Assembly: GCA_963758515.1 (NCBI GenBank) | Contig: CAVWVO010000004.1 | Span: forward strand, 1,513 to 65,512 | Direction of reading: 5' to 3' | Origin: an uncultured Actinomycetota bacterium | Lineage (GTDB): Bacteria; Actinomycetota; Acidimicrobiia; Acidimicrobiales; Bog-793 | DNA: 64,000 nucleotides | Part shown: piece by piece, positions 10,413-33,622 of the stretch | Numbering within the stretch: position 1 is the first letter of the stretch | How the letters are laid out: each line of letters starts with the position of its first letter | Notes under the pieces: generated by a model | Database searches by the model: none | Told to the model about the DNA's origin: nothing | What the model saw: the letters and a program-made list of their open reading frames with translations, nothing else | Program-made: the position numbers and the translations under genes

Positions 10413-11427
10413 GTGCGCACAGCAGGACATCGTCTCGTATCGGGGGTTGTTGGCCTGCTCGCGGGGGCTATGGCGATCGCCAGCTGCGGATCGACGACCG
10501 CAACTCCAAGCAGTACTTCGAGCGGATCACGTCTGTCAGGCACGCTCATCGTGTTCGGAGCAGGGACCCTCTCACAGCCTTTTGCTCAAGAGATCGCAGC
10601 CTTCAAACAAGCGAACCCGGCCGTGACGGTGCGCTCGCAGTTCGGCGCCAGCGGCAACATGACAAAGGACATCACCCAGCTGAAGGAGCCCGACGACGTG
10701 CTCGGCGTCGCCGACTACTCCCTCATCCCCTCGGAGATGTTCGGTACGGGATCAAAGCGTTTCGCGACCTGGTACATCGGCTTTGTCCGAAACGAGATCA
10801 CATTCGCCTACACGAGCCACAGCAAAGGCGCCGCCCAACTGACCTCGAAGAACTGGTACAAGATCCTTGCTGAGCCGGGCGTGCATATCGGACGTTCGAC
10901 CCCGGCGGCAGATCCCTCGGGTTACCAGATCCTGCAGATGCTGAAGCTCGCCGGGGGCTACTACCACGATCCCTCGCTTTCGGCTGACGTCCTGAAGAAC
11001 TCTCCGAAAGCGAGCGTCGCCGCCGAAGAGACCGCCTTGACCGCCGCTCTCCAGACAGGCCAGATCGACTACCTCGCCATCTACCGGTCAAGCGCCCTGG
11101 AGGACCACTTCGAGTACATCCACCTGCCCGACCAGATCAACCTGTCGAACCCCGCCTTCGCGAAGACGTACGCCGACCGTCACGGTGCAAGGCCCCACAG
11201 GGCCGACGACGGGCAAACCGATCGTCTATGCCCTCACCATCCCGACCAATGCTCCGAACCCGGCACTGGCCCGCAGCTTCGTCGCCTTCGTGCTCAGTTC
11301 GAAGGGGCAGGCGATCATGTCCTCGAATGGGTTCGTGACGATCTCCCCGGCGCTCGCGAGCAGCAAGAGCGCGCTTCCGTCTGCTCTGCGCTCCCTCACG
11401 GTGGCCTGGCCGAACCTCGCGGGATGA
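10413..11427 (+). pseudogene. Tungstate/molybdate-type ABC substrate-binding lipoprotein, +1 frameshift near 11178
   Basis: Signal plus lipobox (LAGAMAIASCGS) and a PBP fold. The frame changes at GCC GAC c GTC ACG GTG, and the C-terminal 80 aa (VQGPTGPTTGKPIVYALTIP...) continue in the frame of ORF 11185-11427. Confidence 0.75.
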
Positions 11428-12260
11428 TTGCCGCACGGCAGACCAGCCGTCGGCCCGCGTGGCCGTTCGGTGCCTTTCAGGCCCTCATGTGGGTGCTCGG
11501 AGGGCTGCTAATCGCATTCATCTTGGTGCCTGTCGTGCGGCTCGCGACGACGTCGTCTCTCGGAAGTCTCACTCATGCTGCCGAGAACGCCCAGATCCGC
11601 GACGCCATCCAGCTCAGCCTGCAGGATGCCGCCATCACCGCCGCCATCGCGACTGTCGTCGGTGTACCGCTCGCCTACGTCCTTGCCCGGAGGCGCTTTC
11701 GGGGCCGGAACCTCGTGCAGGCGATAGTCGACCTCCCCCTTGCTGTGCCGCACACCGTCGCCGGCATTGCCCTGCTCTTCGTCTTCGGGCGGACCGGTTG
11801 GGTCGGGGGACCGGCCGGTCACATCGGGATCTCCTTCTACGGCTCGCAGTGGGGGATCGTGGCGGCCATGCTGTTCGTGAGCGCCCCCTTTGCCGTCAAC
11901 AGCGCGAGAGTGGCACTCGAAGCAATCGATCCCAACATCGAGCGAGCTGCTCGAAGCCTCGGGGCCAGTCCTTCCTTCAGCTTTCGCCACGTCACCTTGC
12001 CGCTTGCCGCCCGTGGCGTGATGACCGGGGCGGTCCTCGTCTATGCGCGCTCGATCAGCGAGTTCGGCGCCGTCGTGATCCTCGCCTTCTACCCGGTGAC
12101 TGCTCCGGTGGAGGTCTACAACCTGTTCCTGCAGTCTGGGCTCGCCGAGTCGGCATCAGCGGCGGTGCTCTTGTTGTTCGTGTCTCTTGCCACCTTCCTC
12201 GTGCTCCGCACGCTCTCCTCGGGATGGCTGTTCGCCGGCGCTGACCGTGAGCGTGCCTGA
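11424..12260 (+). CDS. ABC transporter permease (molybdate/tungstate/sulfate type)
   Basis: ATGA start/stop overlap with the binding-protein gene. EAA-like loop IERAARSLGASPSFSFRHVTLPLA. Six TM-like segments. Confidence 0.85.
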   Translation: MIAARQTSRRPAWPFGAFQALMWVLGGLLIAFILVPVVRLATTSSLGSLTHAAENAQIRDAIQLSLQDAAITAAIATVVGVPLAYVLARRRFRGRNLVQAIVDLPLAVPHTVAGIALLFVFGRTGWVGGPAGHIGISFYGSQWGIVAAMLFVSAPFAVNSARVALEAIDPNIERAARSLGASPSFSFRHVTLPLAARGVMTGAVLVYARSISEFGAVVILAFYPVTAPVEVYNLFLQSGLAESASAAVLLLFVSLATFLVLRTLSSGWLFAGADRERA

Positions 12261-14239: not shown

Positions 14240-14610
14240 GCGGCACAGACACGGCGACGCTGGAGCTACGTCAACGTGTTGGGTATCAAAGTTGGGTATC
14301 AACAGCCGCCTACTCACGCCAATGCGAGGCAGCGTGACAGACAGAAGCCCCAGTTCAAGCGGTTGTCGGCCGCCTGAAGCAACCCCCAGACAACCTGGAG
14401 AGGCTTTGCAAGCCGGGGGTCGCCGGTTCGAGCCCGGTCAGCTCCACTAAAGCCCCTGGTCAGAGGCCACTTATTGTTGGCTGTATAGTGACAAATACGG
14501 TGTTGGGATCAATCTGGGTGTCAACCAGGCGAGTTAGGCGCCGCACGGTGCAGCGCACGAAGCGGGAGCGACTGCCCCTGAACGGCACTTCGGGGCACCT
14601 CTGGGGCGCG
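14240..14610 (+). mobile_element. attP-like module A: paired 11-mers, conserved block, tRNA-Ala(UGC)-like 3' 45 nt, second 11-mer pair, integrase N-terminal remnant
   Basis: TTGGGTATCAA at 14279 and 14292. Core GGCTTTGCAAGCCGGGGGTCGCCGGTTCGAGCCCGGTCAGCTCCA at 14402-14446. TTGGGATCAA and TGGGTGTCAA at 14503 and 14515. Remnant ..RRRTVQRTKRE.. from about 14535. Confidence 0.6.
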
Positions 14611-15536
14611 CGGTGACCACCGCGTTATCGGCCACCGATCCAAGCGCAACGTCGAGAAGTTGCTCTGAGGTTTGAACGTCGCCGCTAAATTCCCGCCCGA
14701 ATCAGCCGCCGGTCATGGCTGCCTCTTCGGCGGTCTCGGAGCGGCTTTGGCTAATGACGAACCGACACTGCTCTCGCCAGGCACCTCACCCGCTCGGCGC
14801 CGGGGTCGACTGCTAGCCGCGCGCGCACGGAGGGCGTAGAGCGCTGATGCGGACCGTCGGGGCGGAACCCGAAAGTGAATCACCAGAAGGACCATCCCTA
14901 CTTTCGCCCTACTCTGTATGGCGGGCAGGCTGATCGCTCGGCCCTGCCCGGCGTGGGTGCTGTCACGAACACCCAGGTTTGATTCCGGCGCAGGCACCGC
15001 CGGAACAAGGGTGATTCCAAGGACTCAGCTTTGGGAAGGGTCGTCAGGCGTACGACGGAGTACCAGCGCTAACCATTATGTTATCTGCACGCCGTCGAAC
15101 GGTCATGAACGGCAGCGTCCGCGGGATATTCGCGGGATGCGACTTCCGCCGCTGTATAACGGCTTCAGGGCCTTCTCGTCGCAGTTTCGTCCGAGCCACG
15201 TCTGCAGGCCGAAGTGCCAGCTACGACACTTGGTTTGACGTCCAAGCTAACGCCCGCCGCGACCGATGCGACTGGCCGGAGGAGTACGTCCGGGGGAGCC
15301 GTCTAGCTGAGTCGCGCTCGGGATGGACGACCTCGGTCGATTTGTACAACGCCAGCCCTCGCGAGCGGCGCGGCAGCGCATCCTGCTGTGGCTCTATCGG
15401 CGAGCCGCTTCAGCTGGGCTTCGAGGGTGCTGATTTTACTCGACGAGAGTCGGTCGGAGCAGGAAAACCACTTTCAATGAGCGGCCTCGTGGCGTCGTGA
15501 CAGGATCGAGACCTCATGCCGTTGCTCTGGTCGGCT

Positions 15537-18005
15537 CTATACGTAGCCTCGCTTCTGCAAGACTTGCCAGGATATCCATCCTGGAACGATCGGCAGCCAG
15601 TAGGTGGACAGCCTGTAAACGAGTACAGCCGCGACGGCAGGCCCGGCGTGCATACCAACGCCGGTCAAGCCGGCGACCAAGGCCGCCTCGATCGCGCCGA
15701 GACCGCCCGGGGTAGGTGAGGCGGCAGCAATGGCAGCGGCACCCAGGTAGACCGCTCCGATCTCTTCGATCCCGACCCCGCCGCCGAATGCCTGGATCGA
15801 GGCCGCGAGGCCTGCGATGTACGCAAGAGTCACCAACGCAGAGCCGCCCACCAAAAGCGCCAGCTTGACAGGGCTGGCTGCGACAGTTCGCAGGCTGTCG
15901 GCACCCGATCTCAGGGCCGGCAGCACCCGGGTTGCTCCGAAGCTCCTACCCCGACTCGTGGCGAGCAACATTCCGACCAGTGCGGCTGCAACAGCGAGAA
16001 TGAGCAGCAGCTTGCTGGCTGCCGGCAGCTTGAAGGCGTGCGTCAGCCCACGGCTCGCCAATGTGAAGAAGATCACCATGAGGATCAAGTGAGCCACAAG
16101 TCCCACGAGCGCATTGACACCAACCGCGGCGATACCGGCACCGGGTGGGACACCCCTCTTTTGCAGGAATCGTGCGTTCAGCGCCATTCCGCCGATGTTG
16201 GCGGGCGAGACCCGGTTGACGAACGAGGATGCGGTCTGCGTCAGGGTCATGGGCCAGAACGGTATGGGTCCCGGCACGGCACCAATCAGCGCCACCGAAC
16301 TCGCAAGGTACGTCAAGGCGGATGCGGCGAGGATGACCGGCACCCAAATCCAGTGCGCCGACTGCAATGCCTGCCAGCTGCTTCCTACGTGGGCCAGCTG
16401 CGGCAGGATGAAATAGAAGGCACCGGCAGCGGCGGCGATTGCGAGCAGGTTCTTGAGCCGGACCCGCTGAAGCCGGGCCAACGGCTGATCACCGAGTCCA
16501 CCGGCCGCGGTGGCGGCTGCCCTGGTTTCCGCGAGCAGGCCATCGTTCCTCCCGATCGCCTGACGCGTGGCTGCCGACAGAGCCAGCGGCTGCAGCAACG
16601 GAACTGCGAGCGCCAGAGCTTCGGCGCCGACTACCGCCGCAGCGCTGGACACAGCTCTTTCCGCGCCGACCATCGTGGCCAACGACGCCAGTAGCTCGGC
16701 TATGTCAAGGTCCTTCTGTCGCCGGCTGGCGACCAGTTCCGAAAAACTGAAGTCGGTCAACCAAGGCACAAGGTCGCCGTCGACCATCACATTGGCCGCC
16801 CGCAGGGAGCGATGAGCGATCCCGGCGCGGTGCAGGCTGTCCACTTCGGTCCACAGCTGTCGGAGAAGGTCATCGCTGATCGCCTGCGAGGACAATTCGG
16901 CGAGCGAGGTGCCATCTATCCGCTCCATTACAAGCAGCGCCGTCCCCTCGCGGGCTTTGATAATCCGTTCGACATTGGGGACACGGACGCCGGCTCGCTC
17001 GGCTGACATGCCAACGAGGGCCTGGTGCTCGACCGCGCGAATCACCGCGGCGGAAGGCCATGTGTTGTCGACGTTGCGCAGCCGGACGAACCGATATGCC
17101 CGGTAGAGCAGGTCCGCATCACGTTGGTCCGAGCCGAGAGCCTTTATGAACAACCGGCGCCCGTCAGCGGCGACGGCCACGAACGGCCGGGAGCCTTTCG
17201 TATGAATATCGGCCGACTCGACGATGACGGTTGGAAGACCCGCGGACCGAAGCGCCTCCGCGATCCCGACCGGACCGATCCGAAGGTCAGGCACGCCGAA
17301 TGCCACCAGAACACCGGCGCCCACGCTCACCCCGACTGCGAGCGCGAGAAGCAGTTCGGCCGGCAGCACAGTGCCGGTAATGAGCCGGATCCCTACCATC
17401 GTGCTCACCGTTAGCCATGCCGTCCGGCGCCACGGACGGCACAGCCATGGCGCGAGGGCGACAGTGATCGCCGCCGCCGCGGCAAGCAGCGGCGGGTCTG
17501 GAAACCAGGCGCCGATCAGCCACGAGCCGTGTCCTGTGGTCAAGGCCAATGCGTGCGGGTGCTTATCGCCGAACAGATACAAGATTCCTGACAGCGCCGC
17601 ACCGGCTGCAACAGCGCCGGCCGTCAGGCCGGCCAGGAGACGGAACCGGCGGTGGAGGAGGACGCCGGCGACGATCCCCGCGGCAGCGACGACGAATGCA
17701 ACTTGCACAAGACCAATCAACAGCCTTCCAGTCGAATCAGATCCGAGCCAGGACACGGTGCGCGCGCCGTTCCTGACGAGCTGACCGGGGGCCACCGCGA
17801 TTGCCGCGAGTGTGCCGATTAGAACCAGTCCGCTTACGATGAGCCGGATGACATCGCCCGGATGCCGGTAACGGGACGACGGGACAAGCTGAAACGCCTG
17901 GGTTCTGACTAGATCTGCCGTGTCGGGCCCCGAGTCATCGGTCATCGTGAGCTCGCCTTCAGGAGGGATCTTCGCGTCACGCTGGGTCTGGTCCGTGCTG
18001 GTCAT
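15537..18005 (-). CDS. Polytopic membrane protein with a central kinase-like domain (catalytic Asp position is Ser) and a C-terminal MprF-type flippase-like (LPG_synthase_TM/UPF0104) domain
   Basis: Intact 822-aa ORF. The start ATG at 18005 overlaps the PAP2 stop (ATGA). Kinase-like loop GIAHRSLRAANVMV and LTDFSF. C-terminal SPTPGGLGAIEAALVAGL motif typical of the flippase-like TM region. Confidence 0.8.
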   Translation of the reverse strand: MTSTDQTQRDAKIPPEGELTMTDDSGPDTADLVRTQAFQLVPSSRYRHPGDVIRLIVSGLVLIGTLAAIAVAPGQLVRNGARTVSWLGSDSTGRLLIGLVQVAFVVAAAGIVAGVLLHRRFRLLAGLTAGAVAAGAALSGILYLFGDKHPHALALTTGHGSWLIGAWFPDPPLLAAAAAITVALAPWLCRPWRRTAWLTVSTMVGIRLITGTVLPAELLLALAVGVSVGAGVLVAFGVPDLRIGPVGIAEALRSAGLPTVIVESADIHTKGSRPFVAVAADGRRLFIKALGSDQRDADLLYRAYRFVRLRNVDNTWPSAAVIRAVEHQALVGMSAERAGVRVPNVERIIKAREGTALLVMERIDGTSLAELSSQAISDDLLRQLWTEVDSLHRAGIAHRSLRAANVMVDGDLVPWLTDFSFSELVASRRQKDLDIAELLASLATMVGAERAVSSAAAVVGAEALALAVPLLQPLALSAATRQAIGRNDGLLAETRAAATAAGGLGDQPLARLQRVRLKNLLAIAAAAGAFYFILPQLAHVGSSWQALQSAHWIWVPVILAASALTYLASSVALIGAVPGPIPFWPMTLTQTASSFVNRVSPANIGGMALNARFLQKRGVPPGAGIAAVGVNALVGLVAHLILMVIFFTLASRGLTHAFKLPAASKLLLILAVAAALVGMLLATSRGRSFGATRVLPALRSGADSLRTVAASPVKLALLVGGSALVTLAYIAGLAASIQAFGGGVGIEEIGAVYLGAAAIAAASPTPGGLGAIEAALVAGLTGVGMHAGPAVAAVLVYRLSTYWLPIVPGWISWQVLQKRGYV

Positions 18006-18769
18006 CTTCGGGCCCCCGTAACTCGATTGGGAAGGACGCGCAGGCTCGGGCCGCGACGGGCCAGGTGTCTCCTGTCGTTCCATCGCCGCTGAAGCAGTTC
18101 GGTTACAAGGGCGGTCACCAAGGCGCAGGACGTGCCGAGGAGAATCCCGGCAGTGGCGTCAGAGAGCCAGTGGGCAGCTAGGTAGGCTCTGGAGAGCCCC
18201 ATCAAGATCGCGAACGTCACCGCGACCGCGCCCCAAAGAGCGCGCCGCCTACCCGCGGGCACCAAGGCGATGACAGCCGCGACGACAGTTACCGAGGCGG
18301 CGACGGCGTGTCCCGACGGGAACGACCCACCGCTCGTCGCAACGAGGGAACCGAACGGTCTCGGCCGGTCATAGACGTCTTTCAGCGAGCCGATGAGGAG
18401 CTCCGACGTCACCACCGCCGCGGTGAAGGCGGCCAGGTGCCACCACCGGCGCTTCAGGGCCAGGAAGCCGGCCATCGCTATCCGCACGGGCAGGGTGACG
18501 TAAACAAGCCCGAGAACGTTGAAGACCTTTGCGATTCCCGTCAGCGGCGCTGTCCGGCCGGAGACCATAAGGCGCAGCCACCAATTGTCGATGTGCTGAA
18601 TCCTGGCCAGCGTGCCATGGACAGCGACCAGGACGAACAGCATGGCCGTGAGCGTGACTACCACGGCGGTAACGAGAGCGGCTCGCCGCGGGCTGGCGAG
18701 GAGCGCTTCCTCCTTCCACGGGGTCGTGGCCGGCCCGCTTAGCCCGGACATGAGGCGCCTCGTCCGCAC
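18002..18769 (-). CDS. PAP2-family phosphatase (membrane)
   Basis: KDVYDRPRP, SFPSGHAV and SRAYLAAHWLSD are the three canonical PAP2 motifs. Start is the GTG at 18769 or the ATG at 18751. Confidence 0.85.
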   Translation of the reverse strand: MRTRRLMSGLSGPATTPWKEEALLASPRRAALVTAVVVTLTAMLFVLVAVHGTLARIQHIDNWWLRLMVSGRTAPLTGIAKVFNVLGLVYVTLPVRIAMAGFLALKRRWWHLAAFTAAVVTSELLIGSLKDVYDRPRPFGSLVATSGGSFPSGHAVAASVTVVAAVIALVPAGRRRALWGAVAVTFAILMGLSRAYLAAHWLSDATAGILLGTSCALVTALVTELLQRRWNDRRHLARRGPSLRVLPNRVTGARR

Positions 18770-20952
18770 AAGGAAAGGCCTTCTGTGCGCCGGACGTAGT
18801 CGACGAGCACAGACCGAGGTGTGAAAGCCAACGCGCCATCAATGGCAGCCACGAGTTTCCGGGATGCACCCGGCGCGAAGCGGAACCAGTAGGTGGCGCA
18901 CCCTCCGGAGAAGGTGTAGTAGCGAAGATCGGAGTACTGCGTCTTACGGCTAGGCGGATCCTCGAACTGGCGCGTACCGGGCTGGTCGGAGGGGATCTGC
19001 TGGGCGCCCGAGGTGTCGCAGGTCGCAGTGAGGGTTACGGTGACTGCTCGCGGCCCTGCGCGATCGGAGTCCAGCGAGAGGCTGGCCCTCCCGCTGGCGA
19101 TGTCCGTGCCGCCAATGCTCCAGCCCGTCGGGAGCGCGGCGATGCAGGGCAGCAGGGCAGCGGACGGGACTGCCTGGGCGCTCAGGATCATCGAATGGCC
19201 GGTGCCGCAGCTGGGGGCGTAGGCGCCCAGATTCTCGCCTGCCGGGAAGAAGGCATTTCCCGTTTCCCCCACGGCGGCGGTGATGACGGCGAGCATCGCG
19301 GCCGCCAGAGCGACCCGCCCGATGTTCCAGCGTTGCAGCGCGATCGGCGGCCGCTGCGGGGCGAGGGCGCGGAATTCGCCGAGCAGGTCGCGCTGGTCCC
19401 GTTTCATGAAGGCGCGCAGTTGGGTCGGGCTGGCGGCCCCGCGGGTGGCGGCGAATGCTTCAGCTAGCTCGGCTTCGGTGAAGTACGCCAGCGCCCGCCG
19501 GTAGACCCGCTGCGGGTCGGTGCGCACCGCGAGGAGGAGCATCATGTTGCCCAGGTCGACCGCCTGCCGCCATGGTGACGGGCGCACCTGGACGAAGGCC
19601 ACGTCGACCAGCAGCAGCTCTCCGGAGCGGACCATCAGGTTGCCTGGTTTGATGTCGCGGTGGGCGATCCCAGCGTCCCACAGCGTGCGGATCAGCCGCA
19701 GTCCCTGGTCGATCACCGTGTCGTCGACGTCGGCTTCGCCGATTTCGACGGCGCCGGTATGGAATTCGGTGACCAGCATGTACTCGCGCTCGGGCGTGAT
19801 CTCCACGATGCCGTATGGCTGGGCCGTGCGGACCCCGATGTCCTGCAGCAGGCGCAGGGCATAGTCCTCGTACTCGACCAGGCGCCGCACGGTCTGGAAG
19901 GGGTGCTCGTCCTCCAGGGAGCCGTACAGGATGGTCCGCCACAGCTTGTACCAGCGGTCGGCGCGGACGTGACCCTTGGTGTAGAGCTTGGCGAACACGA
20001 ACTCCTCCGGGCCGCCTTCGACTCGCAGCCGCAACGGCGTGGAGCCGGCGGAGGACTCCAGGCCGACCGGCTTGATCTCGGCCACCGCGAGGCCGAGCTG
20101 GTCGCGCACGGCCTGGCGGATCGCCTGCCCCCGCCGGCCGGTCACGTCCACGTGCGCGGTGCGGCCGCGCCGGTAGGCGACGGGGAACGCCTCGTTCGGG
20201 GTGAAGTACCGAAACGCGGTGACCGCGATCGCAACGGCGATCGCCACGGCGAGCAACGCATCACCGGGGTGATCGACACCGAGGTACAGGCGAGCCAGAC
20301 AGAAGACGGCGACCACGGCGACCACCGCAGCCTTTGTGTAGGTGCGGACGTGGCCGGGCACGGCCAGGCAGTAGACGGCGCCCATCAAGAAGATCGTCAG
20401 GACCGCTGCCGAGGGGGACACCCCGGAGTACCCGCCCCAGCTGCCGATGATCGTTACGCCGTACGGGCGTGGTCTGGACAGCCCGAAGTAGATCGATGTC
20501 CCGGCAATCTCCAGGAACAACACGCTTCCCAGGAACACCAGCAAGTGCCGCCAGCGGCGGAACGCCATCGTCAGGGCGACCACCGACAGGCCGAGCGCGG
20601 TGGCCCCCCAGCCGGAGCCCGCTCCGTTGATCCCGTTGGCCACATCGGTCAGCCACGGCGTCCGTATTCCGGCCAGGAGACGGAGCACCCACGTGCTTGC
20701 CCGGTCATCGATCCGGAGCCACGGCGTGTGCTGGGACGCCAGGAACGCGCCGGCGAGCACCACAGCCCCAAGGATCAGCCATGCCGTGGTGCTGAACGAG
20801 AACGCGCGCGGCAGGGGCGGGGGGGCGCCGGTGGGGCGGCGCTGGCGCGCTGTTGGCAGCACGGCGGGACCCGGCACTGGGCCGACTACGGAATCTAGTG
20901 TTGTAGCGGCAACGGTGTTCTCGCTCGTGGACTCGGTCTTGGAAGTGTTCAT
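18739..20952 (-). CDS. Membrane protein with an N-terminal degenerate PAP2-like domain, a kinase-like domain, one TM segment and a Cys-containing extracytoplasmic domain
   Basis: Intact ORF. ATG at 20952 is preceded by GGGAGA. LSRPRPYG / VSPSAA (His lost) / ARLYLGVDHPGD. FVFAKLY.., IAHRDIKPGNLMV, LLVDVAF. Late TM RVALAAAMLAVITAAVG followed by about 160 aa containing 5 Cys. Confidence 0.8.
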   Translation of the reverse strand: MNTSKTESTSENTVAATTLDSVVGPVPGPAVLPTARQRRPTGAPPPLPRAFSFSTTAWLILGAVVLAGAFLASQHTPWLRIDDRASTWVLRLLAGIRTPWLTDVANGINGAGSGWGATALGLSVVALTMAFRRWRHLLVFLGSVLFLEIAGTSIYFGLSRPRPYGVTIIGSWGGYSGVSPSAAVLTIFLMGAVYCLAVPGHVRTYTKAAVVAVVAVFCLARLYLGVDHPGDALLAVAIAVAIAVTAFRYFTPNEAFPVAYRRGRTAHVDVTGRRGQAIRQAVRDQLGLAVAEIKPVGLESSAGSTPLRLRVEGGPEEFVFAKLYTKGHVRADRWYKLWRTILYGSLEDEHPFQTVRRLVEYEDYALRLLQDIGVRTAQPYGIVEITPEREYMLVTEFHTGAVEIGEADVDDTVIDQGLRLIRTLWDAGIAHRDIKPGNLMVRSGELLLVDVAFVQVRPSPWRQAVDLGNMMLLLAVRTDPQRVYRRALAYFTEAELAEAFAATRGAASPTQLRAFMKRDQRDLLGEFRALAPQRPPIALQRWNIGRVALAAAMLAVITAAVGETGNAFFPAGENLGAYAPSCGTGHSMILSAQAVPSAALLPCIAALPTGWSIGGTDIASGRASLSLDSDRAGPRAVTVTLTATCDTSGAQQIPSDQPGTRQFEDPPSRKTQYSDLRYYTFSGGCATYWFRFAPGASRKLVAAIDGALAFTPRSVLVDYVRRTEGLSLCGRGASCPG

Positions 20953-21252
20953 GTCGATCTCCCTGGAGTGTTCAATGGATTGAGGGGGGTTGGTCATCGG
21001 ATCGGGCACTTAAGGACGCGAGGCCATGCGACGCATCGGTGGAGTGGTGACTACATCCAGGGCCACCTTCTGCTTGGGGACACCCTGAGCCGGGAGCAGA
21101 CGATTGGCGAGGTGTTGGACGTTCTCGTGGGCACCAAGCGTCGCCTGCGGTCACGCCGCCAATGAAGTCCGACGCACCCGGACGGGCAGCTCGACCCATC
21201 ACGCGCCCGTGTCGGGGAATCCTCCCAAGATTCCCCGACACGGCGCGGGCGA

Positions 21253-23316
21253 TCAGTGCAGGGCCGGCTCCAGGTGCTCCATCTTCGACAGATCCACCAC
21301 CGGAGCGGCCAGACCCACCGTCGGAGCAGCCGTTCCCCGGCGGGCGGCCCGCTCGGTCCAGATGTCGAGCACGAGCAGACTCAGGTTCGACACGACCGCC
21401 GCACCGATGATCGTCGTGATCAACGCCATGAGCCCGCTGGTCGCGTGGAAACCGAGTGCGGCTCCGACCACCGCACCGACACCCGCGGCACCGATGCCCT
21501 TGGCCCGCATCGCCTTCGGTGTGTCGGCGCGGACCCAGCCGGCGTAGAGCCCGAGCCAGATCGGCACCGCGATCGAGACCACCGTCACGAGCGGGTCGTC
21601 GAGCGGCCGGCTCGGCCAGAACCGCAGTAGCAACAGTGCGCCGAGGAACCAGCCGCCGAGTCCGAACACGATCGGGCCGGCCGAACGGATCCATGCGCCC
21701 GTCTTGCGGCCCGTACCGCCCCGGCGGCGGATCCGGATCGCCAACACCACGAGCCAGAGCACTGCCAACAAGGCGAAGCCGACCATTGCCCCAAGGAGGT
21801 CCCTGGCGATCCCTGTCTGTGTGGACGGTGTCACGAAGCTGACGACGTTCGGGGTGTAGCGGGACGTGTCGACCTGACCGGTGGCGTAGAACTTGGTCAG
21901 CAACTGCGTGCCGGCTTTCGGCTCGTAGTACCAGAAGTCGTCCACGTGCCCGAGCCCGGACAGGATGACCTGATGCCCGTTGGAAAGGTGCGGCAGCAGC
22001 TCCTTCGTGGCGTTCTGGGCCGGCGTCTCGAAGTCGAGCGTCCCGCCGACGAGCAGCGTCGGGACGCTCGAGTTCTGCACGCTCGTGTACTGGTTCTCGC
22101 CCGGGTTGGCCGGCCAGGCGTGCACAAGGCCTCCTGCCCCCCAGATGAAGTCCGCGAGGGGATTTCCGATGATCGAGCCCCGGTCAGCGCCGGAGCTGTA
22201 ATAGCGCTCGACGGGGTGGGCGTCGGCCATCCCGATGCTTGCAAACTCGCCCCAGACGAACGACTGGGGGAGGACCAAATGGGTCATCATCGATAGAAAC
22301 CACAGGCCGCTCGGGTCACCCTGCGCGGCGGAGATCCACGAGTCGAGGGTCGTCGGCCCGGACAGTTCCGAAGCCTGCGCGGTCGAATACGTGAGTCCGA
22401 GGAACGTCCCGACCCGGACGTTGCCCGGCTCGATCGGCAGGGATAACCAACTGCTCGGCATGTGGGCGGCCGTGTGCTGCATGCTGGCGGCGAGGTTTCC
22501 GGTGCGGGCGCGGCAGGAAGGCTGCTTCGCGCACAGCGCCGAGTAACGCTCGATCCCCTGATCGATCTCGGCTCCGCTGTAGAGGAAGTTCCCGGGCGGG
22601 TTGACCCCGACCATCACCGAGCGATCGACAGTGCTCGGGTACCGCCACTGGTAGACCATCCCGAGACGGGTCCCGGCGCTCTCGCTGAACAGGTCGATGC
22701 GCTTGTAGCCGAGGGCGACGCGAGCGGCGTCGATGTCGGCGGCCTGCTCTGCCAGCGTGTAGCCGGCAAGGTCTACGCCGTCTCGCTCAAGCCGCTTCGC
22801 GCACGCGGCGAAGGCCTGCGAGTACGCGGTGAGCGACGCTTTGCCGAGGTAGTCGGCGGAGTTGTTCAGCGCCGCCGTCACCTCGGGACAGTTCAGCACC
22901 GAAGAGCCGTCGACGCCGCGGTAGCCGACCATGACGACATCGTGCTTAGCGGCCAGGCGGTTCGCTTGGGGAAACGTCATGTTGGTTATGCCCGGGCCGC
23001 CGCTCAGATGGAAGATTGGCGCCAGCGGGTGAGATGAGCGAGCCAGGATCCGGATCACCGGCAGCGCGATCAGCCGCGACTTCGAGCTCGCTCGGTTCTC
23101 CGGCACGACCAACGTGCCGCAGTCGGCGGGCATCGCGCCCTGCTCGCTCGCGTAAGTGCACGCGTGCATGGTCAGGTCACCGGCCTTGGCTCCGGCGGGC
23201 ACTGAGGCGGCGGCGTCGCCGGGTGCGAACCGGATGTACATCAGGCCGAACAACATCACCCCGATGACCACCAGGGCAACGATCCGAGTGGGGGTGTAGA
23301 TCCGCTTTGCCTTCAT
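21253..23316 (-). CDS. Membrane-anchored alpha/beta hydrolase (TAP/tripeptidyl-aminopeptidase-like) with a C-terminal multi-TM region
   Basis: N-terminal TM anchor, HLSGGPG oxyanion region, nucleophile elbow FSESAGT. The last ~190 aa form about 5 hydrophobic spans. ATG at 23316 has GAAGGA 10 nt upstream. Confidence 0.8.
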   Translation of the reverse strand: MKAKRIYTPTRIVALVVIGVMLFGLMYIRFAPGDAAASVPAGAKAGDLTMHACTYASEQGAMPADCGTLVVPENRASSKSRLIALPVIRILARSSHPLAPIFHLSGGPGITNMTFPQANRLAAKHDVVMVGYRGVDGSSVLNCPEVTAALNNSADYLGKASLTAYSQAFAACAKRLERDGVDLAGYTLAEQAADIDAARVALGYKRIDLFSESAGTRLGMVYQWRYPSTVDRSVMVGVNPPGNFLYSGAEIDQGIERYSALCAKQPSCRARTGNLAASMQHTAAHMPSSWLSLPIEPGNVRVGTFLGLTYSTAQASELSGPTTLDSWISAAQGDPSGLWFLSMMTHLVLPQSFVWGEFASIGMADAHPVERYYSSGADRGSIIGNPLADFIWGAGGLVHAWPANPGENQYTSVQNSSVPTLLVGGTLDFETPAQNATKELLPHLSNGHQVILSGLGHVDDFWYYEPKAGTQLLTKFYATGQVDTSRYTPNVVSFVTPSTQTGIARDLLGAMVGFALLAVLWLVVLAIRIRRRGGTGRKTGAWIRSAGPIVFGLGGWFLGALLLLRFWPSRPLDDPLVTVVSIAVPIWLGLYAGWVRADTPKAMRAKGIGAAGVGAVVGAALGFHATSGLMALITTIIGAAVVSNLSLLVLDIWTERAARRGTAAPTVGLAAPVVDLSKMEHLEPALH

Positions 23317-23442
23317 GACGAGCACGTCCTTCGGTCCTGCGGAAAACCGGGTGAATCCCGCTACACGAACCGTAAAGACCGGGCCCGGCGGAGTCGTCGG
23401 CCGCGAGTGCGATTGGCGCTCGTCCTGCGGGCGGATTCGAGA

Positions 23443-23459
23443 CTCGTCCTCGAGTAGGA
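23443..23459 (-). promoter_or_regulatory. 17-bp box TCCTACTCGAGGACGAG (minus-strand reading) upstream of the hydrolase-kinase operon
   Basis: 13 of 17 positions are identical to the box upstream of the kinase/regulator operon (25414-25430) in the same orientation. It lies about 125 nt upstream of the hydrolase start. Confidence 0.4.
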
Positions 23460-23518
23460 GGTTCGAAGCGCGGGATCGACGGAACGGCGGCAGTCGCGCT
23501 TGGGGTCCCCTGTGAGGC

Positions 23519-24178
23519 TTAGGTGGGTGTGGCTCCCGGTACGAGCCCGGTCTGGTAGGCGAGCACGACGACTTGGACGCGGTCGCGGAGGTTGAGTTTC
23601 TGGAGGATGTGTGAGACGTGGGTCTTGACGGTCGTCTCGCTGATATAGAGCTCCGCGCCGATCTCTGCGTTGGACAGGCCGCGGGCGATGAGCCGGACGA
23701 TGTCTTGCTCGTGTGCGGTGAGCTCGTCGAGTTCTTTCGGCGACTCGTGGCGAGGGATGCGGGTGAATTGACTGATCACGCGTTTGAGGATCGCGGGTGA
23801 GAGGAGCGCGTCTCCAGCGGCGACGGTGCGGACCGCCTCGATCAGCTGTTCGGGGGGGTCGTCTTTGAGCACGAATCCGCTCGCGCCGGCGCTGAGTGCT
23901 TCGTAGACGTATTCGTCGAGTCCGAAGGTGGTGAGGATCAGGATCCGGGCGGTGTTGTCGGTGGCAATGATCCGGCGGGTGGCCTGGAGCCCGTCGAGCT
24001 CTGGCATGCGGATGTCCATCAGGACCACGGTCGGGTCAAATTGCGCCGCCTTGGCCACCGCTTCCAGTCCGTTGCTTGCTTCGGCGACGACTTCCATGTC
24101 CTGTTCGCCGGCGAGCAGCATCCGGAAGCCGGCGCGGACCATGGCCTGGTCGTCGGCGATGAGGACTCGGATCGTCAT
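23519..24178 (-). CDS. NarL/LuxR-family response regulator
   Basis: IRVLIADDQAMVRAGFRMLL, DIRMPELDG, and a C-terminal LuxR HTH LSNAEIGAELYISETTVKTHVSHIL. Confidence 0.9.
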   Translation of the reverse strand: MTIRVLIADDQAMVRAGFRMLLAGEQDMEVVAEASNGLEAVAKAAQFDPTVVLMDIRMPELDGLQATRRIIATDNTARILILTTFGLDEYVYEALSAGASGFVLKDDPPEQLIEAVRTVAAGDALLSPAILKRVISQFTRIPRHESPKELDELTAHEQDIVRLIARGLSNAEIGAELYISETTVKTHVSHILQKLNLRDRVQVVVLAYQTGLVPGATPT

Positions 24179-25380
24179 GGCCGGTCCGGGGTGAGTGGGA
24201 GGCGGGCGCTGAGCGTGAACCCGCCGCCGTTTGTCCTGCCTGCGGTCATCTCGCCGCCGTAGAGTTTGACGCGCTCGCGGATGCCGATCAGTCCGTGGCC
24301 ATGGCCGTCGCTCGGCGTCACGCAGGTGCCGTCGTCGCGCACTTCGATCCCTACCTCGTCCGGCGCATACCGGACGGTGACCTCCGCGTGGCTGGCGCGG
24401 GCGTGCTTGAGCGCGTTGGTGAGACCCTCCTGAACAATCCGATACGCGGAGAGGTCGATCCCTGGCGGGAGCGGGAAACGCTCCCCGTCGAGGTGCAGCT
24501 CGACGGGGAGCCCGGCACGGCCGATCTCCTTCACCAACGAGTCGAGGCCGTCAAGGCCGGGCTGAGGCGCGAGCTCTAGGCCGTCGCCGTCACGGCGCAT
24601 CACACTGAGCAGACGGCGCATCTCGGTCAGCGCGCCGCGCCCGGCCTGCTCGACACTCCTGAGGGCATCGCGATCCTCGGCCATCGCGTCGAGGCGGTGC
24701 CTGACAGCGCCGACTTGCAGCACCATCACGCTGACGGCGTGCGCGACGATGTCGTGCAGCTCGCGCGCGATCCGCGCCCGCTCCTCGGCCACAGCGACGC
24801 GCGTCGCTGCATCCCGCTCCTGCTCGGCCTGTGTCGCATGTGCCTCCGCCACCTCGGCCTGCTCTTCGGCCTGTGTCGCATGTGACTCCGCCACCTCGGC
24901 CTGCTCGGCCCGCGCGCGGACGGCAAGGCCTGCTACCAAGGCGACGGCGAAGTCGATGGGAATGAAGACGAGCTGGAAGACCGAGTGTCCGGGGATGTTG
25001 TAGAGGAGGGTCGCCGCAGCACCGACCACGATCGCCAGTCCGAGGCCGGCCTGGCGGACGTCCCGAAGGTTCCCGAGCAGGAATGCGGCCACCAGGCCGA
25101 GCAGGAAGATGGACTCGGGGTACGGGATCAGCAGCGGGTCGACGAACGAGATTCCCGCGGCCAAAAGCCAGTACCCCGCCGGTCCGGCAAATGGAAACCA
25201 TCGCCGCGCGAACAGGGGTAGCACCAGGATCGCGAGCGCGGGAAGGCAGAACCACAGCGTCGTTGTCGGAGCTCCGGACGAGCCGCGTCCGAGCACCACG
25301 TCGAGCATCGCCATGATCGCAAGCAGCGCGATCAGCAGGTCGAACCAGTACGTGCGGGCGAGATGTTCGATTCGGCTCAC
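24175..25380 (-). CDS. Sensor histidine kinase (HisKA_3 type, intramembrane-sensing architecture)
   Basis: About 160 aa of closely packed TM helices with no obvious extracytoplasmic domain. H-box RIARELHDIVAH, then HATPase motifs. ATGA overlap with the regulator gene. Confidence 0.9.
   Translation of the reverse strand: MSRIEHLARTYWFDLLIALLAIMAMLDVVLGRGSSGAPTTTLWFCLPALAILVLPLFARRWFPFAGPAGYWLLAAGISFVDPLLIPYPESIFLLGLVAAFLLGNLRDVRQAGLGLAIVVGAAATLLYNIPGHSVFQLVFIPIDFAVALVAGLAVRARAEQAEVAESHATQAEEQAEVAEAHATQAEQERDAATRVAVAEERARIARELHDIVAHAVSVMVLQVGAVRHRLDAMAEDRDALRSVEQAGRGALTEMRRLLSVMRRDGDGLELAPQPGLDGLDSLVKEIGRAGLPVELHLDGERFPLPPGIDLSAYRIVQEGLTNALKHARASHAEVTVRYAPDEVGIEVRDDGTCVTPSDGHGHGLIGIRERVKLYGGEMTAGRTNGGGFTLSARLPLTPDRP
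24826..24909. repeat. Intragenic 42-nt tandem duplication (2 units) in the kinase linker
   Basis: GGCCTGTGTCGCATGTG(C/A)CTCCGCCACCTCGGCCTGCTC.. occurs at 24826 and 24868. It encodes the duplicated stretch AEQAEVAESHATQAEEQAEVAEAHATQAE (14-aa period). Confidence 0.8.
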
Positions 25381-25413
25381 TCGCTAAAGGTACGCCGCCC
25401 CCTCCGTTCCCGC

Positions 25414-25430
25414 CTCCTACCTGAGTAGGA
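25414..25430 (-). promoter_or_regulatory. Palindromic box CTCCTACCTGAGTAGGA (TCCTAC-N4-GTAGGA) upstream of the kinase/regulator operon
   Basis: Perfect 6-bp arms, 35-50 nt upstream of the kinase start codon. Related box at 23443-23459. Confidence 0.45.
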
Positions 25431-27653: not shown

Positions 27654-30600
27654 TCAGCGCGTGAGGAGCGCGAAACGTCCTGCGAGCGCTGCGACATCCG
27701 GCTCGTCAGTGAAACTGGTCAGACTGCTGTACGACAAACTCCGGGCGCGCTTCTGAGCGAGCGCGACGAAGGCCTCGATGTTGTGCTTGGTCGGGTCGAC
27801 GAACGCCTTGACTGCGGCTACGGCCGTATCGGCGAGCAGTTGTATCGTCGAGTCCCCGCCGGTGGAGGCGATTTGGGAGGCGTTCGCGGCGAAGACCATC
27901 GCTTCGTCTGCTCTGCCGGCGTCGAGTGCCCACCACGCCAGGCCAGCGAGCACGCCGGCCTGGCCGGCGCCGCCGGAAGCGAGTCCGCCTGCACCGCAGG
28001 TCCCGGCAGGAAGGGCGGAGTTCGCGGTAGTAGCTGCCTGCCGCGTCGAGCAGCTCCCGCGCCCTCGCCAGGTTGCCGAGTCGACGAGCTACCGCCGCCT
28101 GACCGACCATCGCGTCGGCAGACACCGCCGGGTTGAAGCTGTAGGCAATCGCCTCCTGGTACAGGGTGTCGGCTGCGTCGTCGTCGCCTTGTTTGCCTCT
28201 CAGCGCGGCAAGGCGGAAGAGATTGAACAGCACATAACCGCGTTGTCCCGCTGCGCGGCATCGCTCCAAGAGCGCCTCGTAGGTTGCTGACGCACCATCG
28301 AGGTCGCCTCGGGAGTCGGCGATGCCGGCAAGGATGCTGAGCGGGTCGACGGTATACCAGACCTCCCCTTGAGCGTCGAAGCGCTTGACGCTCGAGCGGG
28401 CGGCTGGCTCGGCGTCATCGAGCCGCCCCAACAACGCCAAGTTCCAGGCGACTATCAAGTCGTGCACGGCGAGCTGCCAGCCGTGCGCAGCCGGTTCCAG
28501 CAGATCGTGCGCCGCGCTCAATGCGTCGAGAGATCGTTCGAACTTGTGGGCGCGCATAAGCACAGTGGCACAGAGCACCAGGGCCTCCGCTCGACGAACC
28601 CGATCGTCGCCGGGTGTCAACGCGGCGACTGCCGCTTCACATTCGAGGGCACCAGCCTCTGGGCTGAACGCAAGGGACACGAAATAGCCGTGCCAGACCC
28701 GTGCGGTCGCTGCCAACTCAGGACGGCGCGACCCCTTCGCCTCGAGGGCGTCACCGAGCCAGCGTGCTCCTTCGACATAGTCGCTGTTGATGAACCACAG
28801 CCAGGCCATTCCCGAGACCAACGACAGAGCCTCATCGGCGTCGTCTCTAGTGATGAACCAGTCGAGCGCCGCCCGCAGGTTGCCCAGCTCCGCGGTGAGG
28901 CGTTTCCGCCAGATCGGCCCGGTGGCGCCTCGCAGACCCTCGTGGGCCTCCTCGGCCATCTGTCGGTAGTGGGCGCCATGCCTGCCGCAAATGGCCTCAA
29001 CCTCGTCGGCTTCATCGAGCCGGTCCCGGCCGTATTGCCACAGCGTCTGGAGCTGAGTGAACCGGGCGTCACGACCGGCGTTAGGGCGGGCGACGAGGGA
29101 CTTGTCGACCAACCGGCTTAGAAGGTCGAGTATCTCACCGGCCGGCACCTCGTCGTCGGCACAGACCGCCTCGGCGGCCTCCAGGTCGCAGCCCCCCGCG
29201 AAGACCGCTAGTCGAGCGAACAGGCGGCGTTCGTCTTCGAACAGCAGGTCGTAGCTCCAGTCCACCACCGCCCGAAGGGTTTGTTGGCGGGGCAGGGCTG
29301 TGCGGGCGCCCATGGTGAGCAGCCGGAAGCGATCGTCCAGCCGTTCTGCCAGCGTGGCCAATGTAAGTGAACGAAGGCGGGCGGCGGCAAGCTCAACGGC
29401 TAGAGGAAGCCCGTCCAATCGACGGCAGATGTCGTCGATCACAGGAATGCGTGTGCCCGTCTGCCGCAAATCCGGGTCGGACGGCCCGGGCGCGATCGAC
29501 GAACAGCTCGACTGCAGCCGGCACGGCCAATGGGCCAACGGAAATCAGGACCTCGCCAGGAACGCCGAACGGCTCGCGGCTCGTCGCGATCAGCCGGAGA
29601 CCGGGAAGCGTTCCGACCAGGGTCTCTGCCAGGGCCGCTGCCTGGTCGATCACGTGCTCACAGTTGTCGAGAACGACCAACAGTGACCGACCGGCCAGGT
29701 AACGCACGATGAGCTCCACCGTCGAGTCCGGCGAAGGAGGGCCAATGAGGCCCGCAGCGGCCGCCCCGAGTGCGCTGGCCACGGCCGGCGCAACCCCCCC
29801 GGGGTCGGTGACGCCGGCGAGCTCGACCAGCCAGGCCCCGTCGGGGTGCTCATGGCGCAGAGTGGCGGCCGCCTCTACTGCTAATCGGGTCTTGCCCACC
29901 CCACCTGGGACCGATCAGCGTCACCAGCCGGCTAGATCTGACGGCCTCGCTCAGCTCCTCGATTTCGGCTGTGCGACCGACGAAGCTGCTCAACTGCTCC
30001 CGCAGGTTGCCCGTCGGCATCGGCGTCGGAACCGCCCCAAGATCTGCCCGGCCGGCTGCGGTGAGTGATGGGTCGTGGGCCAGGATGCGGGCCTCGAGTT
30101 CTCGCAGGGCCGGGCCGGGGTCGAGCCCTAGCTCGTCGACCAAACAGTCACGTGCTTCGCTGTAGGCGCGCAAAGCCTCGGCCTGGCGGCCAGCCCGGTA
30201 GAGGGCGAGCATGAGCAGCTCCCACAGTCGCTCGCGAAGGGGATGCTCCCGGGACAACGCCTCAAGCTCACCTATGACCTCGTTATGGCGACCGAGCGCC
30301 AGATCGGCTTCGACGCGGGTCTCGATCGCCACAAGGGTCAACTCGGCGAGATGTGCTCGTTCCCCATCGGCGAAGCCCGCGTACGCGAACTCCGTGAGAG
30401 GCTCCCCCCGTCGCAGCCGTAGCGCTTCGGCTAGAGCGGTTGACGCGAGCGCCATCTCCCCCTTGTCAAAAAGGCGCCGCCCCTCCGCCACCAGCTGTTC
30501 AAAACGGGCAGCGTCGACATCATCCGGACCGATACCGAGGGCATAGCCGGCGTCGGAGGTGACGATCGCCGTCGCTCCGAGGGTACGCCGGAGCTGGCCG

Positions 30601-30797
30601 ATCTGGGCCTGCAAGGCGTTGACCGGGTTGGCCACTTGGTCATCACCCCACAGCGCGTCGATCAGCCGGTCCGCGCTCACAGGCTTTCCCCGCTGAAGCG
30701 CCAGTAGAGCCAGGACCGTTCGCTGCTTGGCACCCCGGACCGGTACCGGCACGCCGCCTTCTACTGCCTCAAACTCGCCGAAGAACCTCACCTCCAC
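27654..30797 (-). pseudogene. SARP (BTAD) - NB-ARC - TPR large regulator (AfsR-like), at least 3 frameshifts
   Basis: The winged-helix/BTAD N-terminus (29850-30797), NB-ARC (29393-29899), helical/TPR part (27706-29538) and C-terminal tail (27654-27953) lie in different frames. An extra A splits the P-loop, reading LIGP-RWGGQD instead of LIGPGGVGKT, near 29906. Confidence 0.8.
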
Positions 30798-30942
30798 GCG
30801 TGCAGCCTACGACCACCGCTCCGCGAGCACCTGAGCAGCTTCCTACTGCGCTGAGGTCCCACCTCAGCGGCACGGCAGTCACGCCTCAGGCCCCGAGCGC
30901 AGCCTTGCCAAGACACGCAGCTCATCGACGAAAGGAAGAGCA

Positions 30943-31872: not shown

Positions 31873-31873
31873 C

Positions 31874-32684: not shown

Positions 32685-32769
32685 ATCGACGGTGGCCACC
32701 GTCACATCCCAACGCACTTTGATCGAAGACCTTGCAGCATTCACGACTATCAACCGACTGGAGAAGTCA

Positions 32770-33477: not shown

Positions 33478-33622
33478 TATCTCGGTCCGAGCTGAGCTCG
33501 GACGATCGCCTCGGGCCTTGGTTGGCGAAGCGGTCGCAGCAAACCCTTGGCGACACTGCCGGCTGGATCGGCCCATTGCAGCACAGACGTGCAACACCTC
33601 TCGACAACAGAAGGGAATTCTG

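Follow-up and report, generated by a model that had tools for sequence, protein, structure and literature searches.

A PAP2, kinase and flippase-like gene trio joined by rearrangement to a two-component and hydrolase module in an uncultured actinobacterium

In bacteria, PAP2 enzymes work on the outer side of the membrane and kinases depend on cytoplasmic ATP; before a lipid-linked sugar is flipped, KdkA and WaaP phosphorylate it at the inner face. In Mycobacterium tuberculosis the lipid flippase MviN (MurJ) carries an intracellular pseudokinase together with an extracytoplasmic domain, and is regulated by PknB and FhaA. In MprF, a domain of family PF03706 translocates the lipid made by a fused cytoplasmic partner domain (for example, PMC8131360). 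Here we analyse a stretch of 64,000 nucleotides from an uncultured Actinomycetota bacterium (GenBank assembly GCA_963758515.1, contig CAVWVO010000004.1; the whole stretch is called the window below), in which open reading frame (ORF) calling gives six uninterrupted minus-strand ORFs at 15537-25380. From 5′ to 3′ they encode a sensor histidine kinase (HK), a response regulator (RR), an α/β serine hydrolase (HYD), a kinase with a degenerate PAP2-like domain (P4), a canonical PAP2 lipid phosphatase (PAP2) and a pseudokinase with a flippase-like domain (P6). A sequence-only reading had taken all six for one lipid-phosphate module under envelope-stress control. That reading was misled by same-strand adjacency in one genome: neighbourhood comparison and a junction in the DNA reveal two modules. 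We are highly confident that the run is mosaic, made of two conserved units independent of each other, HK-RR-HYD (Module A) and the P4-PAP2-P6 trio (Module B), joined at that junction by rearrangement.

Scanning species-representative genomes with P6 gave 80 loci, all from uncultured soil or bog Actinomycetota. P4 is encoded in 75 of these, PAP2 in 65 and both together in 63; with the single-chain fusions found elsewhere (see below), this upholds the proposal that the three genes belong together. The wider six-gene claim fails on the same survey, in which a HYD of the window type and an orthologous HK or RR each occur in 0 of the 80 loci, and also on the junction, the hairpin and the different upstream gene of relatives described below. 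Module B comes in two gene orders, P4-PAP2-P6 and P6-x-P4-PAP2, and its genes overlap tightly in loci L083 and L084, the second of which also holds a P4-PAP2 pair without P6. Several genomes carry two or three sets, and in Trebonia-like and acidimicrobial lineages the module has multiplied to several copies in a genome; the sequences recovered derive from soil, bog and peat metagenomes or metagenome-assembled genomes (MAGs). The reciprocal test used HYD as query and gathered 64 metagenome loci. An orthologous HK-RR pair adjoins the HYD relatives in about 15 of them, co-directional or divergent (HK 52-87% identical, RR 56-94%), and the trio lies 3′ of HYD in one, L088, where no two-component system occurs within 7 kb. 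Because HK-RR recurs beside HYD and the trio does so in a single locus, HK-RR-HYD counts as a separate, recurrent module: the two-component pair goes with the anchored hydrolase rather than the lipid genes.

The seam can be read in the DNA. From 23974 down to 20927 the window is 93-97% identical to L086, a match that covers RR, HYD and 326 nucleotides past the HYD stop codon; from 20886 down to 15024 it is 92% identical to L151 and L152, the closest relatives of the trio, in which the gene order is ABC-x-OpuAC-P4-PAP2-P6. The junction, at about 20927, coincides with the normal P4 start codon. L086 has RR-HYD and no trio, and the gene that follows its HYD encodes a soluble α/β hydrolase starting MPDPMTNHPQSIEHSKEIDMKTSKTKST. 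The window P4 starts MPDPMTNPPQSIEHSREIDMNTSKTEST and runs on into SENTVAAT, which is codon 2 onward of a normal P4. DNA identity and the N-terminal peptide match together delimit a foreign 5′ end at 20927-21009 (minus strand), with a probable start ATG at 20952 (MNTSKTEST) whose codons come from an L086-type soluble hydrolase gene. By its sequence the window P4 is thus a chimera whose promoter region and first codons are foreign, and OpuAC has been lost; P4 being fused in frame to the 5′ end of the HYD-following gene, the trio is probably transcribed from a foreign promoter. The same junction is present in L088, whose HYD and trio share 88-90% DNA identity with the window. A block at 30932-36642 (plus strand) shares synteny with the region usually found upstream of the trio, as in L151, L153 and L003, and comprises genes for an ABC ATPase, an ABC-2-like permease, a DUF4386-like protein, a secreted TAP-like hydrolase, a soluble α/β hydrolase (35273-36085) and a DUF4260 protein. 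With this context now 10 kb away from the trio and on the other strand, an inversion or deletion-type rearrangement is implied. The two modules are further set apart by a stem-loop directly 3′ of the HYD stop codon (21197-21254, minus strand; perfect 15-nucleotide arms at 21207-21221 and 21229-21243) with a folding energy of -45.5 kcal/mol (z -7.4; none of 200 shuffled sequences folds as stably). The hairpin is also found after HYD in L086, and looks like a terminator without a T tract, separating HYD from P4. Genes of mobile elements occur repeatedly in the vicinity of both modules: L086 has a tyrosine recombinase (4320-5252, minus strand) 1.1 kb past the hydrolase pair, and L152 has a DDE transposase and an integrase (14336-15509, minus strand) some 9-10 kb past P6.

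Of the three Module B products, PAP2 (18002-18769, minus strand) is the most conventional. It scores 64.7 bits on PF01569 (cut-off 27.2) and has complete KX6RP, PSGH and SRX5HX3D motifs (KDVYDRPRP, FPSGHA and SRAYLAAHWLSD), as expected of the canonical phosphatase that had been proposed. Its closest curated family is the polyprenyl-diphosphatase SepP, at 37 bits and below the NCBIfam cut-off of 250; PAP2 domains overall score best on polyprenyl-diphosphatase models (SepP 37-89 bits).

P4 (body 18739-20926, minus strand; 756-residue ORF) consists of a PAP2-like domain with six transmembrane (TM) helices (residues ~69-271), a kinase domain (~285-555), a TM helix (561-584) and an ectodomain. Profile comparison, Foldseek and hydropathy agree here with the sequence-only reading, which had described a degenerate PAP2 domain, an HRD-type kinase-like domain, one TM segment and a Cys-containing outside domain. 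On Pfam, both the PAP2 (24.1 bits) and Pkinase (20 bits) scores fall below cut-off. The N-terminal region matches the neighbouring PAP2 family by hhalign (probability 99.1%, E 5.4e-19) and its family profile matches YodM/PgpB (5jki, E 0.006). It has no motif-1 Lys, PSGH has become (G)YSG(V)S and SR has become AR, and the column of the nucleophile His holds Asp, with a His one residue further on. The domain is clearly PAP2-derived by its profile matches and, judged by these substitutions, catalytically dead. The kinase domain presents the opposite case. Its fold is matched by Foldseek against PDB kinases (E 4e-7), its catalytic loop reads HRDIKPGN, and the glycine loop GLESSAGS, K341, E381, D452, K454, N457 and D469 are kept in 70 orthologues. 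The segment after D469 is short and has no APE motif, which sets it apart from Hanks-type Ser/Thr kinases; P4 does not reach the cut-offs of the NCBIfam PknB-type models, and its best sequence match is a 226-residue Bud32-type kinase (chain 8k20_B). The residues point to an active-looking kinase of the minimal Bud32/RIO/Kdo-like type. The ectodomain has six conserved Cys and is more variable than the kinase; profile searches of it against PDB and Pfam returned nothing credible, making it an orphan domain. A homology search with P4 returned at least 7997 matches out of 8000 candidates; among the 120 matches listed, identity is 82-93% and length typically 729 residues, and one cluster member at 93% identity is labelled Trebonia sp. 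Residues 55-67 (~20809-20847, minus strand) form a motif, RxRRPTGAPPPLP (RRRPTGAPPPLP), that is invariant in 30 aligned sequences (82-92% identical). It is cytoplasmic, lies just before the first TM helix, is proline-rich and holds a Thr; it could be a docking or phosphorylation site.

P6 (minus strand, 15537-18005 if it starts at the ATG overlapping the PAP2 stop codon, or to 18083) has 822 residues: a fully degenerate, probably PAP2-derived TM domain (~45-241), a pseudokinase (~245-500) and a flippase-like TM domain (~517-822). It scores well above cut-off on LPG_synthase_TM (PF03706, 118 bits versus 33.4), and above it on TIGR00374 (59.8 versus 43.2) and the Kdo/WaaP family PF06293 (25.8 versus 21.3). 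The flippase motif TPGGLGAIEAAL is kept, with P764-E773 (PTPGGLGAIE) conserved in 25 of 25 aligned sequences and A771 in at least 90%. The chain ends just past the TM domain, at residue 822, and no aminoacyl-phosphatidylglycerol synthase domain was matched in Pfam or NCBIfam (bifunc_MprF 62 versus a cut-off of 600). Pfam and NCBIfam thus substantiate the earlier description of a kinase-like domain, with Ser at the catalytic Asp position, joined to a flippase-like domain that lacks any aminoacyl-lipid synthase. The Ser is S400, HRS replacing HRD; in 64 orthologues K288, E326, N405 and D418 are kept, and HRx carries Ser, Gly or Cys, never Asp. Ranked by target coverage, the best Foldseek matches are PRPK/Bud32 (TM-score 0.67) and RioK1 (0.60), and the kinase domain of P6 is a paralogue of that of P4 (BLAST E 1e-10, profile E 2e-22). 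Direct hhalign comparison of the P6 N-terminus with PAP2 is weak (probability 37%, E 3.5e-4); in an end-to-end alignment with the single-chain relative P0303 this region falls on a canonical PAP2 domain. Its catalytic residues are gone save one Arg (LFGDKHP, FPDPP and IRLITGTVLPAE), and the alignments indicate that P6, too, probably carries a dead PAP2 domain at its N-terminus, one that the sequence-only reading had not noticed. P6 has more than 1600 close homologues, all from metagenomes or MAGs; P6-type proteins make up at least 1137 clusters at E <1e-30 and the full-length architecture at least 150, down to 33% identity, among 1.8 billion cluster representatives searched. Structure prediction of the two kinase-like proteins gave usable kinase cores and was otherwise poor (AlphaFold2 mean pLDDT 50 for P6 and 47 for P4), from shallow inputs of 25 sequences for P6 (at least 67% identical) and 30 for P4 (at least 82%).

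Single-chain relatives place the three proteins in a common frame. P0303 has the order PAP2-PAP2-kinase-flippase in one chain, with kinase motifs HRDLRTAN and DFSFSE, and P6 aligns with it end to end (35% identity, E 4e-123). Giant fusions of 1557-1978 residues contain two or three flippase-like domains, two PAP2 domains, a pseudokinase and an active kinase. P0283 (Actinocorallia) and P0305 (Actinomadura) run flippase-PAP2-pseudokinase-PAP2-kinase-flippase, at 1557 residues in Actinocorallia populi (WP_106400231.1) and A. libanotica and 1586 in Actinomadura sp. GC306 (WP_131949893.1); the pseudokinase has HRE and GFG motifs and the second kinase is active-looking. The fusion genes lie at 10001-14674 of L150 (Actinocorallia populi), 7001-11761 of L156 (Actinomadura sp. 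GC306) and 4249-10185 of L157, and their products amount to an internal heterodimer of Module B. Within the single-chain relatives, a canonical PAP2 catalytic set and the flippase-like domain are intact. The end-to-end alignment and the fusions together make it very probable, as a reading of sequence, that the trio is a three-way split of an ancestral single-chain PAP2-kinase-flippase protein, each activity surviving in exactly one gene: P4 would have kept the kinase, with a dead PAP2 domain and a newly gained Cys-rich ectodomain, PAP2 the phosphatase and P6 the translocator. The Actinomadura fusion is flanked by AftA-like, TagF-like/GT2 and polysaccharide-deacetylase genes.

Clustering all other ORFs of the 80 trio loci revealed the usual fourth partner, which the sequence-only reading had missed: an OpuAC-type substrate-binding protein (PF04069, 114-146 bits) encoded in 49 loci and directly upstream of P4 in 45. 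Its gene overlaps P4 by 4 nucleotides in L083 and L084, with no importer permease or ATPase gene beside it in either, and the protein scores 89 bits on the OsmF model (cut-off 400). No OpuAC gene was found in the window. Its place upstream of P4 is taken, in about 14 loci belonging to the window-like subclade, by a secreted TAP-like hydrolase that is only 25% identical to the window HYD. An ABC transporter was considered as a fifth partner and set aside, an ABC ATPase with an ABC-2-like gene being near in only 6 of the 80 loci.

Module A could be assigned in broader terms. HK (24175-25380, minus strand) combines about five closely spaced TM helices (residues ~7-157, by crude hydropathy) with HisKA_3 (57 bits) and HATPase_c (50 bits) domains, and RR (23519-24178, minus strand) combines Response_reg (92 bits) with GerE (68 bits), so the Pfam scores bear out the kinase and NarL-type regulator that had been named. 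Against the curated NCBIfam equivalogs MadS, UhpB, NarX and LiaS, HK stays far below the cut-offs (best MadS, 89 versus 500), and RR does not reach that of the NarL equivalog (183 versus 250); the pair is assignable only to the general class of HisKA_3 kinase with NarL-type regulator. In HK, the helical linker that leads from the TM region to HisKA_3 is lengthened by two heptads (14 residues, AEVAE.HATQAE.Q) through a 42-nucleotide tandem duplication in the gene (24817-24900, 90% identical). The duplication is apparently absent from L095, L098 and L130, whose orthologues are some 13-14 residues shorter. HYD (21253-23325, minus strand) passes the cut-offs of Abhydrolase_1 (PF00561, 32.8 versus 25.8 bits) and the TAP-like Abhydrolase_4 (PF08386, 23.4 versus 21). 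Hydropathy matches the topology given before: a TM anchor at the N-terminus (~8-36) is followed by a large, probably extracellular domain (~37-503) and four or five C-terminal TM helices (~504-657). The putative triad S216/D431/H460 falls on that of the L073 hydrolase, including the GxSxG-type Ser (25% identity, E 8e-14). In such a module, the HK-RR pair would control the membrane-anchored HYD upon a membrane or envelope cue.

The occurrence of all three activities in one chain suggests a vectorial lipid-phosphate cycle, and by analogy with known enzymes it is possible, though still short of probable, that Module B runs one. P4, PAP2 and P6 would assemble through their paralogous kinase/pseudokinase and PAP2-like domains. 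The ATP-dependent kinase would act at the cytoplasmic face, the MprF-like domain of P6 would carry the lipid across the membrane, and the outward-facing PAP2 would remove or transfer the phosphate. The catalytically dead domains would provide surfaces for assembly or regulation around a central kinase-pseudokinase pair; in most relatives, the P4 ectodomain and a translationally coupled orphan OpuAC would bring in an outside signal. A polyprenyl-phosphate carrier lipid is the favoured class of substrate, doubtful as it is. The PAP2 scores on polyprenyl-diphosphatase models and the cell-wall neighbourhood of the Actinomadura fusion each point weakly towards it, and the passage of the P6 kinase domain over the Pfam Kdo/WaaP cut-off is a further hint to the substrate. 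Several observations weigh against this cycle. The cell-wall neighbourhood occurs in one locus only, with nothing comparable at the Actinocorallia and two MAG loci. AlphaFold is poor outside the kinase cores, so that assembly, topology and the face of each active site follow only from known PAP2 and MprF proteins. The P4-PAP2 pair without P6 in L084 indicates that the flippase is not obligatory. The HRDxKxxN loop is Ser/Thr-kinase-like, and P4 could be a protein rather than a lipid kinase; multiple paralogous sets with a solute-binding protein (SBP) partner fit sensing better than housekeeping recycling of a carrier. More speculative, and rather unlikely on present evidence, is the idea that the trio and its single-chain relatives form an unrecognised class of lipid machine, an ATP-driven shuttle in which a kinase/pseudokinase pair gates an MprF-type translocator coupled to an outward PAP2, with an orphan SBP as input. 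Such a shuttle could offer polyprenyl-phosphate carrier a recycling route that has no relation to UptA/DedA and PopT/DUF368, or could alternatively deliver phosphate or head groups to the cell surface. Taking the structural and evolutionary claims together with the mechanism, we place the explanation as a whole midway between doubt and confidence.

A serious alternative is that Module B is a receptor-kinase signalling system and nothing more. P4 would then be a transmembrane Ser/Thr-type kinase that phosphorylates proteins, P6 among them; the ectodomain and OpuAC would sense a solute outside the cell, for instance a quaternary amine or osmolyte; and the PAP2-like domains would be mere anchors or lipid sensors, with P6 a pseudokinase-gated effector. 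The HRDIKPGN loop with its complete set of catalytic residues, an SBP gene translationally coupled to P4 with no transporter beside it, a Cys-rich ectodomain that varies more than the kinase, the Thr in the invariant proline-rich motif of P4 and a paralogue expansion typical of sensors are all consistent with it, and actinobacteria offer precedents in GlnH-GlnX-PknG and in the MviN pseudokinase regulated by PknB. We nevertheless consider signalling alone to be on the unlikely side, because the P4 kinase is of the minimal Bud32/RIO/Kdo type with neither activation segment nor APE, because a canonical PAP2 gene is retained beside P4 in 63 of 80 loci, and because the single-chain relatives keep intact PAP2 and flippase-like domains in one polypeptide, which argues for the lipid enzymes as the business end. 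Alternatively, the substrate might be a bulk membrane lipid instead of a carrier: the kinase would act, at the inner leaflet, on a phospholipid or phosphatidylinositol-type head group, P6 would export this charged glycerophospholipid in the manner of MprF and PAP2 would trim it outside, altering surface charge. The 118-bit LPG_synthase_TM match, the conserved PGGxGxxE signature and the MprF design itself, a cytoplasmic lipid-modifying domain fused to a PF03706-type TM domain, speak for this export, and the OpuAC/osmolyte link could tie Module B to osmotic stress. It is improbable all the same, in that polyprenyl-diphosphatase models give the PAP2 domains higher scores than PgpB does, no lipid-synthesis gene occurs in the neighbourhoods seen and such a lipid is without support in these uncultured lineages.

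The organization of the run bears on two further alternatives. The sequence-only view, that all six genes are one lipid-remodelling and translocation regulon under the adjacent intramembrane-sensing two-component system, draws on their shared strand and intactness and on L088, where HYD followed by the trio at 88-90% DNA identity means that the arrangement has persisted; the secreted TAP-like hydrolase upstream of P4 in about 14 loci even suggests that some hydrolase-trio link may be real. Set against it are the absence of HK/RR and of window-type HYD from every one of the 80 trio loci, the lack of a two-component system within 7 kb of the L088 genes, the RR-HYD of L086 without a trio, OpuAC as the upstream gene in the closest relatives of the trio, a recombination junction at the P4 start codon and a -45.5 kcal/mol hairpin after HYD; we regard a single regulon as quite improbable. 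At the other extreme, the cluster would have been carried by a mobile island now in decay, or would result from misassembly, its integrity and adjacency devoid of functional meaning. Direct repeats of about 170 nucleotides lie on the plus strand at 14278-14446, 38495-38663 and 38616-38786, with a diverged copy near 40900-41070, and each closes with what resembles the T-arm and acceptor 3′ half of a tRNA (GCAAGCCGGGGGTCGCCGGTTCGAGCCCGGTCAGCTCCA). Between the first two, which stand 24.2 kb apart, lies the whole cluster, and a further 38-nucleotide repeat occurs at 14538 and 38880; they could be old att sites or members of a tRNA-derived repeat family. These repeats, the recombinase and transposase genes near the modules in L086 and L152 and the frameshifted genes nearby speak for this reading. 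We think it highly improbable. The window yielded no tRNA by ARAGORN and a best tmRNA match in Rfam of only 9 bits, the flanking ORFs have no integrase domain, both modules are highly conserved in dozens of independent assemblies, short-read ones included, and the P4 family has at least 7997 matches, the top ones listed being 82-93% identical.

The ORF calls bear out that the six genes are without frame breaks, and the ATGA overlaps at 24175-24178 and 18002-18005 can be read directly in the DNA. The reported overlap of P4 with PAP2 at 18739-18769 amounts to 31 nucleotides if PAP2 begins at GTG, and to 13 from the likelier ATG at 18751, equal to that in L083. Real as the overlaps are, the tight packing claimed for the run is not uniform: 193 nucleotides separate RR from HYD, and some 245-300 separate HYD from P4, the latter gap opening with the very stable hairpin. 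Intactness had also been set against about 20 wrecked genes elsewhere in the window. That count went unconfirmed; breaks of the frameshift type were confirmed in four or five. The gene of a SARP/AfsR-type regulator (Trans_reg_C-BTAD, AAA, TPR) at 27706-30797 (minus strand) falls into three ORFs that differ in frame; an orthologue of the secreted TAP-like hydrolase (33458-35234, plus strand) has a frameshift in a G/C run inside its NPGGPGG motif; an MFS transporter (56593-58210, minus strand) is divided between overlapping ORFs in different frames, the first half of MFS_1 in 57398-58210 and the second in 56593-57594; and an ABC-2-like permease (31820-32722, plus strand) goes off-frame after about 90 residues. 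Two other ways of mapping frameshifts were abandoned, a GC3 phase plot being too noisy at this codon bias and blastx against ORFs of related loci being confounded by frameshifts in those loci. At the verified break rate, 9.9 kb free of breaks has a chance of roughly 0.2-0.4; such a clean stretch is unremarkable, and intactness is by itself weak evidence. Errors of long-read assembly could account for the breaks: the break that was inspected sits in a G/C run, and the same kind of break in many related assemblies makes sequencing error a live explanation. Elsewhere in the window, one 615-residue ORF (10413-12260, plus strand) joins a ModA-like SBP_bac_11 domain to a BPD_transp_1 permease, either as a natural fusion or through a lost stop codon or frameshift.

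Module B could show the use of an MprF-type translocator outside aminoacyl-lipid export, a membrane-embedded bacterial kinase/pseudokinase pair, and how an enzyme of three activities splits into three specialized proteins; should the substrate be polyprenyl-phosphate carrier, it would bear on the recycling of carrier lipid in Actinobacteria. The trio is widespread among soil actinobacteria, with at least thousands of P4 homologues (at least 7997), and cultured Actinocorallia and Actinomadura carry fused versions, so its function is testable there. In line with the sequence-only reading, no characterized system of this composition emerged from Pfam and NCBIfam family names, PADLOC, the PDB or the literature. 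Full-text searches on PAP2, flippase, kinase, PF03706, Bud32, MprF pseudokinase and SepP found no description of the architecture, and PADLOC defence systems gave only generic kinase and TAP-like matches. The PAP2-kinase module of a 2026 oral-microbiome preprint was rejected, its kinase being an unrelated soluble one from Bacteroidota.

Set beside described systems, each part of the run has a recognizable counterpart and departs from it. The HK of Module A resembles DesK/LiaS-type kinases in its multiple TM helices with hardly any outside loop, its HisKA_3 and HATPase_c domains and its NarL/GerE regulator; it differs in scoring below the curated cut-offs (LiaS 75 versus 450) and in having a TAP-like hydrolase for a neighbour, not a desaturase or LiaF. 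The OpuAC of trio relatives, unlike that of the OpuA/OsmF glycine-betaine/choline importers, has no adjacent permease or ATPase in L083 and L084. The PAP2 gene has all three motifs of BcrC, PgpB/YodM, SepP and LpxT and its profile matches 5jki and SepP, whereas it stays well below the equivalog cut-offs (37 versus 250) and the PAP2 domains of P4 and P6 are without most or all of the catalytic residues. With Kdo/WaaP and Bud32/RIO kinases, Module B shares a minimal protein-kinase-like fold that lacks an activation segment; those kinases are not membrane-fused and act on Gram-negative lipopolysaccharide, in KEOPS or in ribosome biogenesis, whereas P4 shows an HRDxKxxN loop, the catalytic Asp is missing from P6 and NCBIfam scores are far below cut-offs. 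MviN/MurJ is likewise a flippase with a pseudokinase that works with an active Ser/Thr kinase, yet its flippase fold is of the MOP family, not PF03706, and it has no PAP2 domains. P6 has in common with MprF the TM family PF03706 and the pairing of a translocator with a cytoplasmic lipid-directed domain in one chain or complex; it differs in having no aminoacyl-phosphatidylglycerol synthase, and in the PAP2 and protein-kinase-like domains that precede the TM region, both of them dead in P6. Module B is an unusual and uncharacterized combination of lipid phosphatase, kinase and flippase, a variation on the design that couples an enzyme to an MprF-type translocator.

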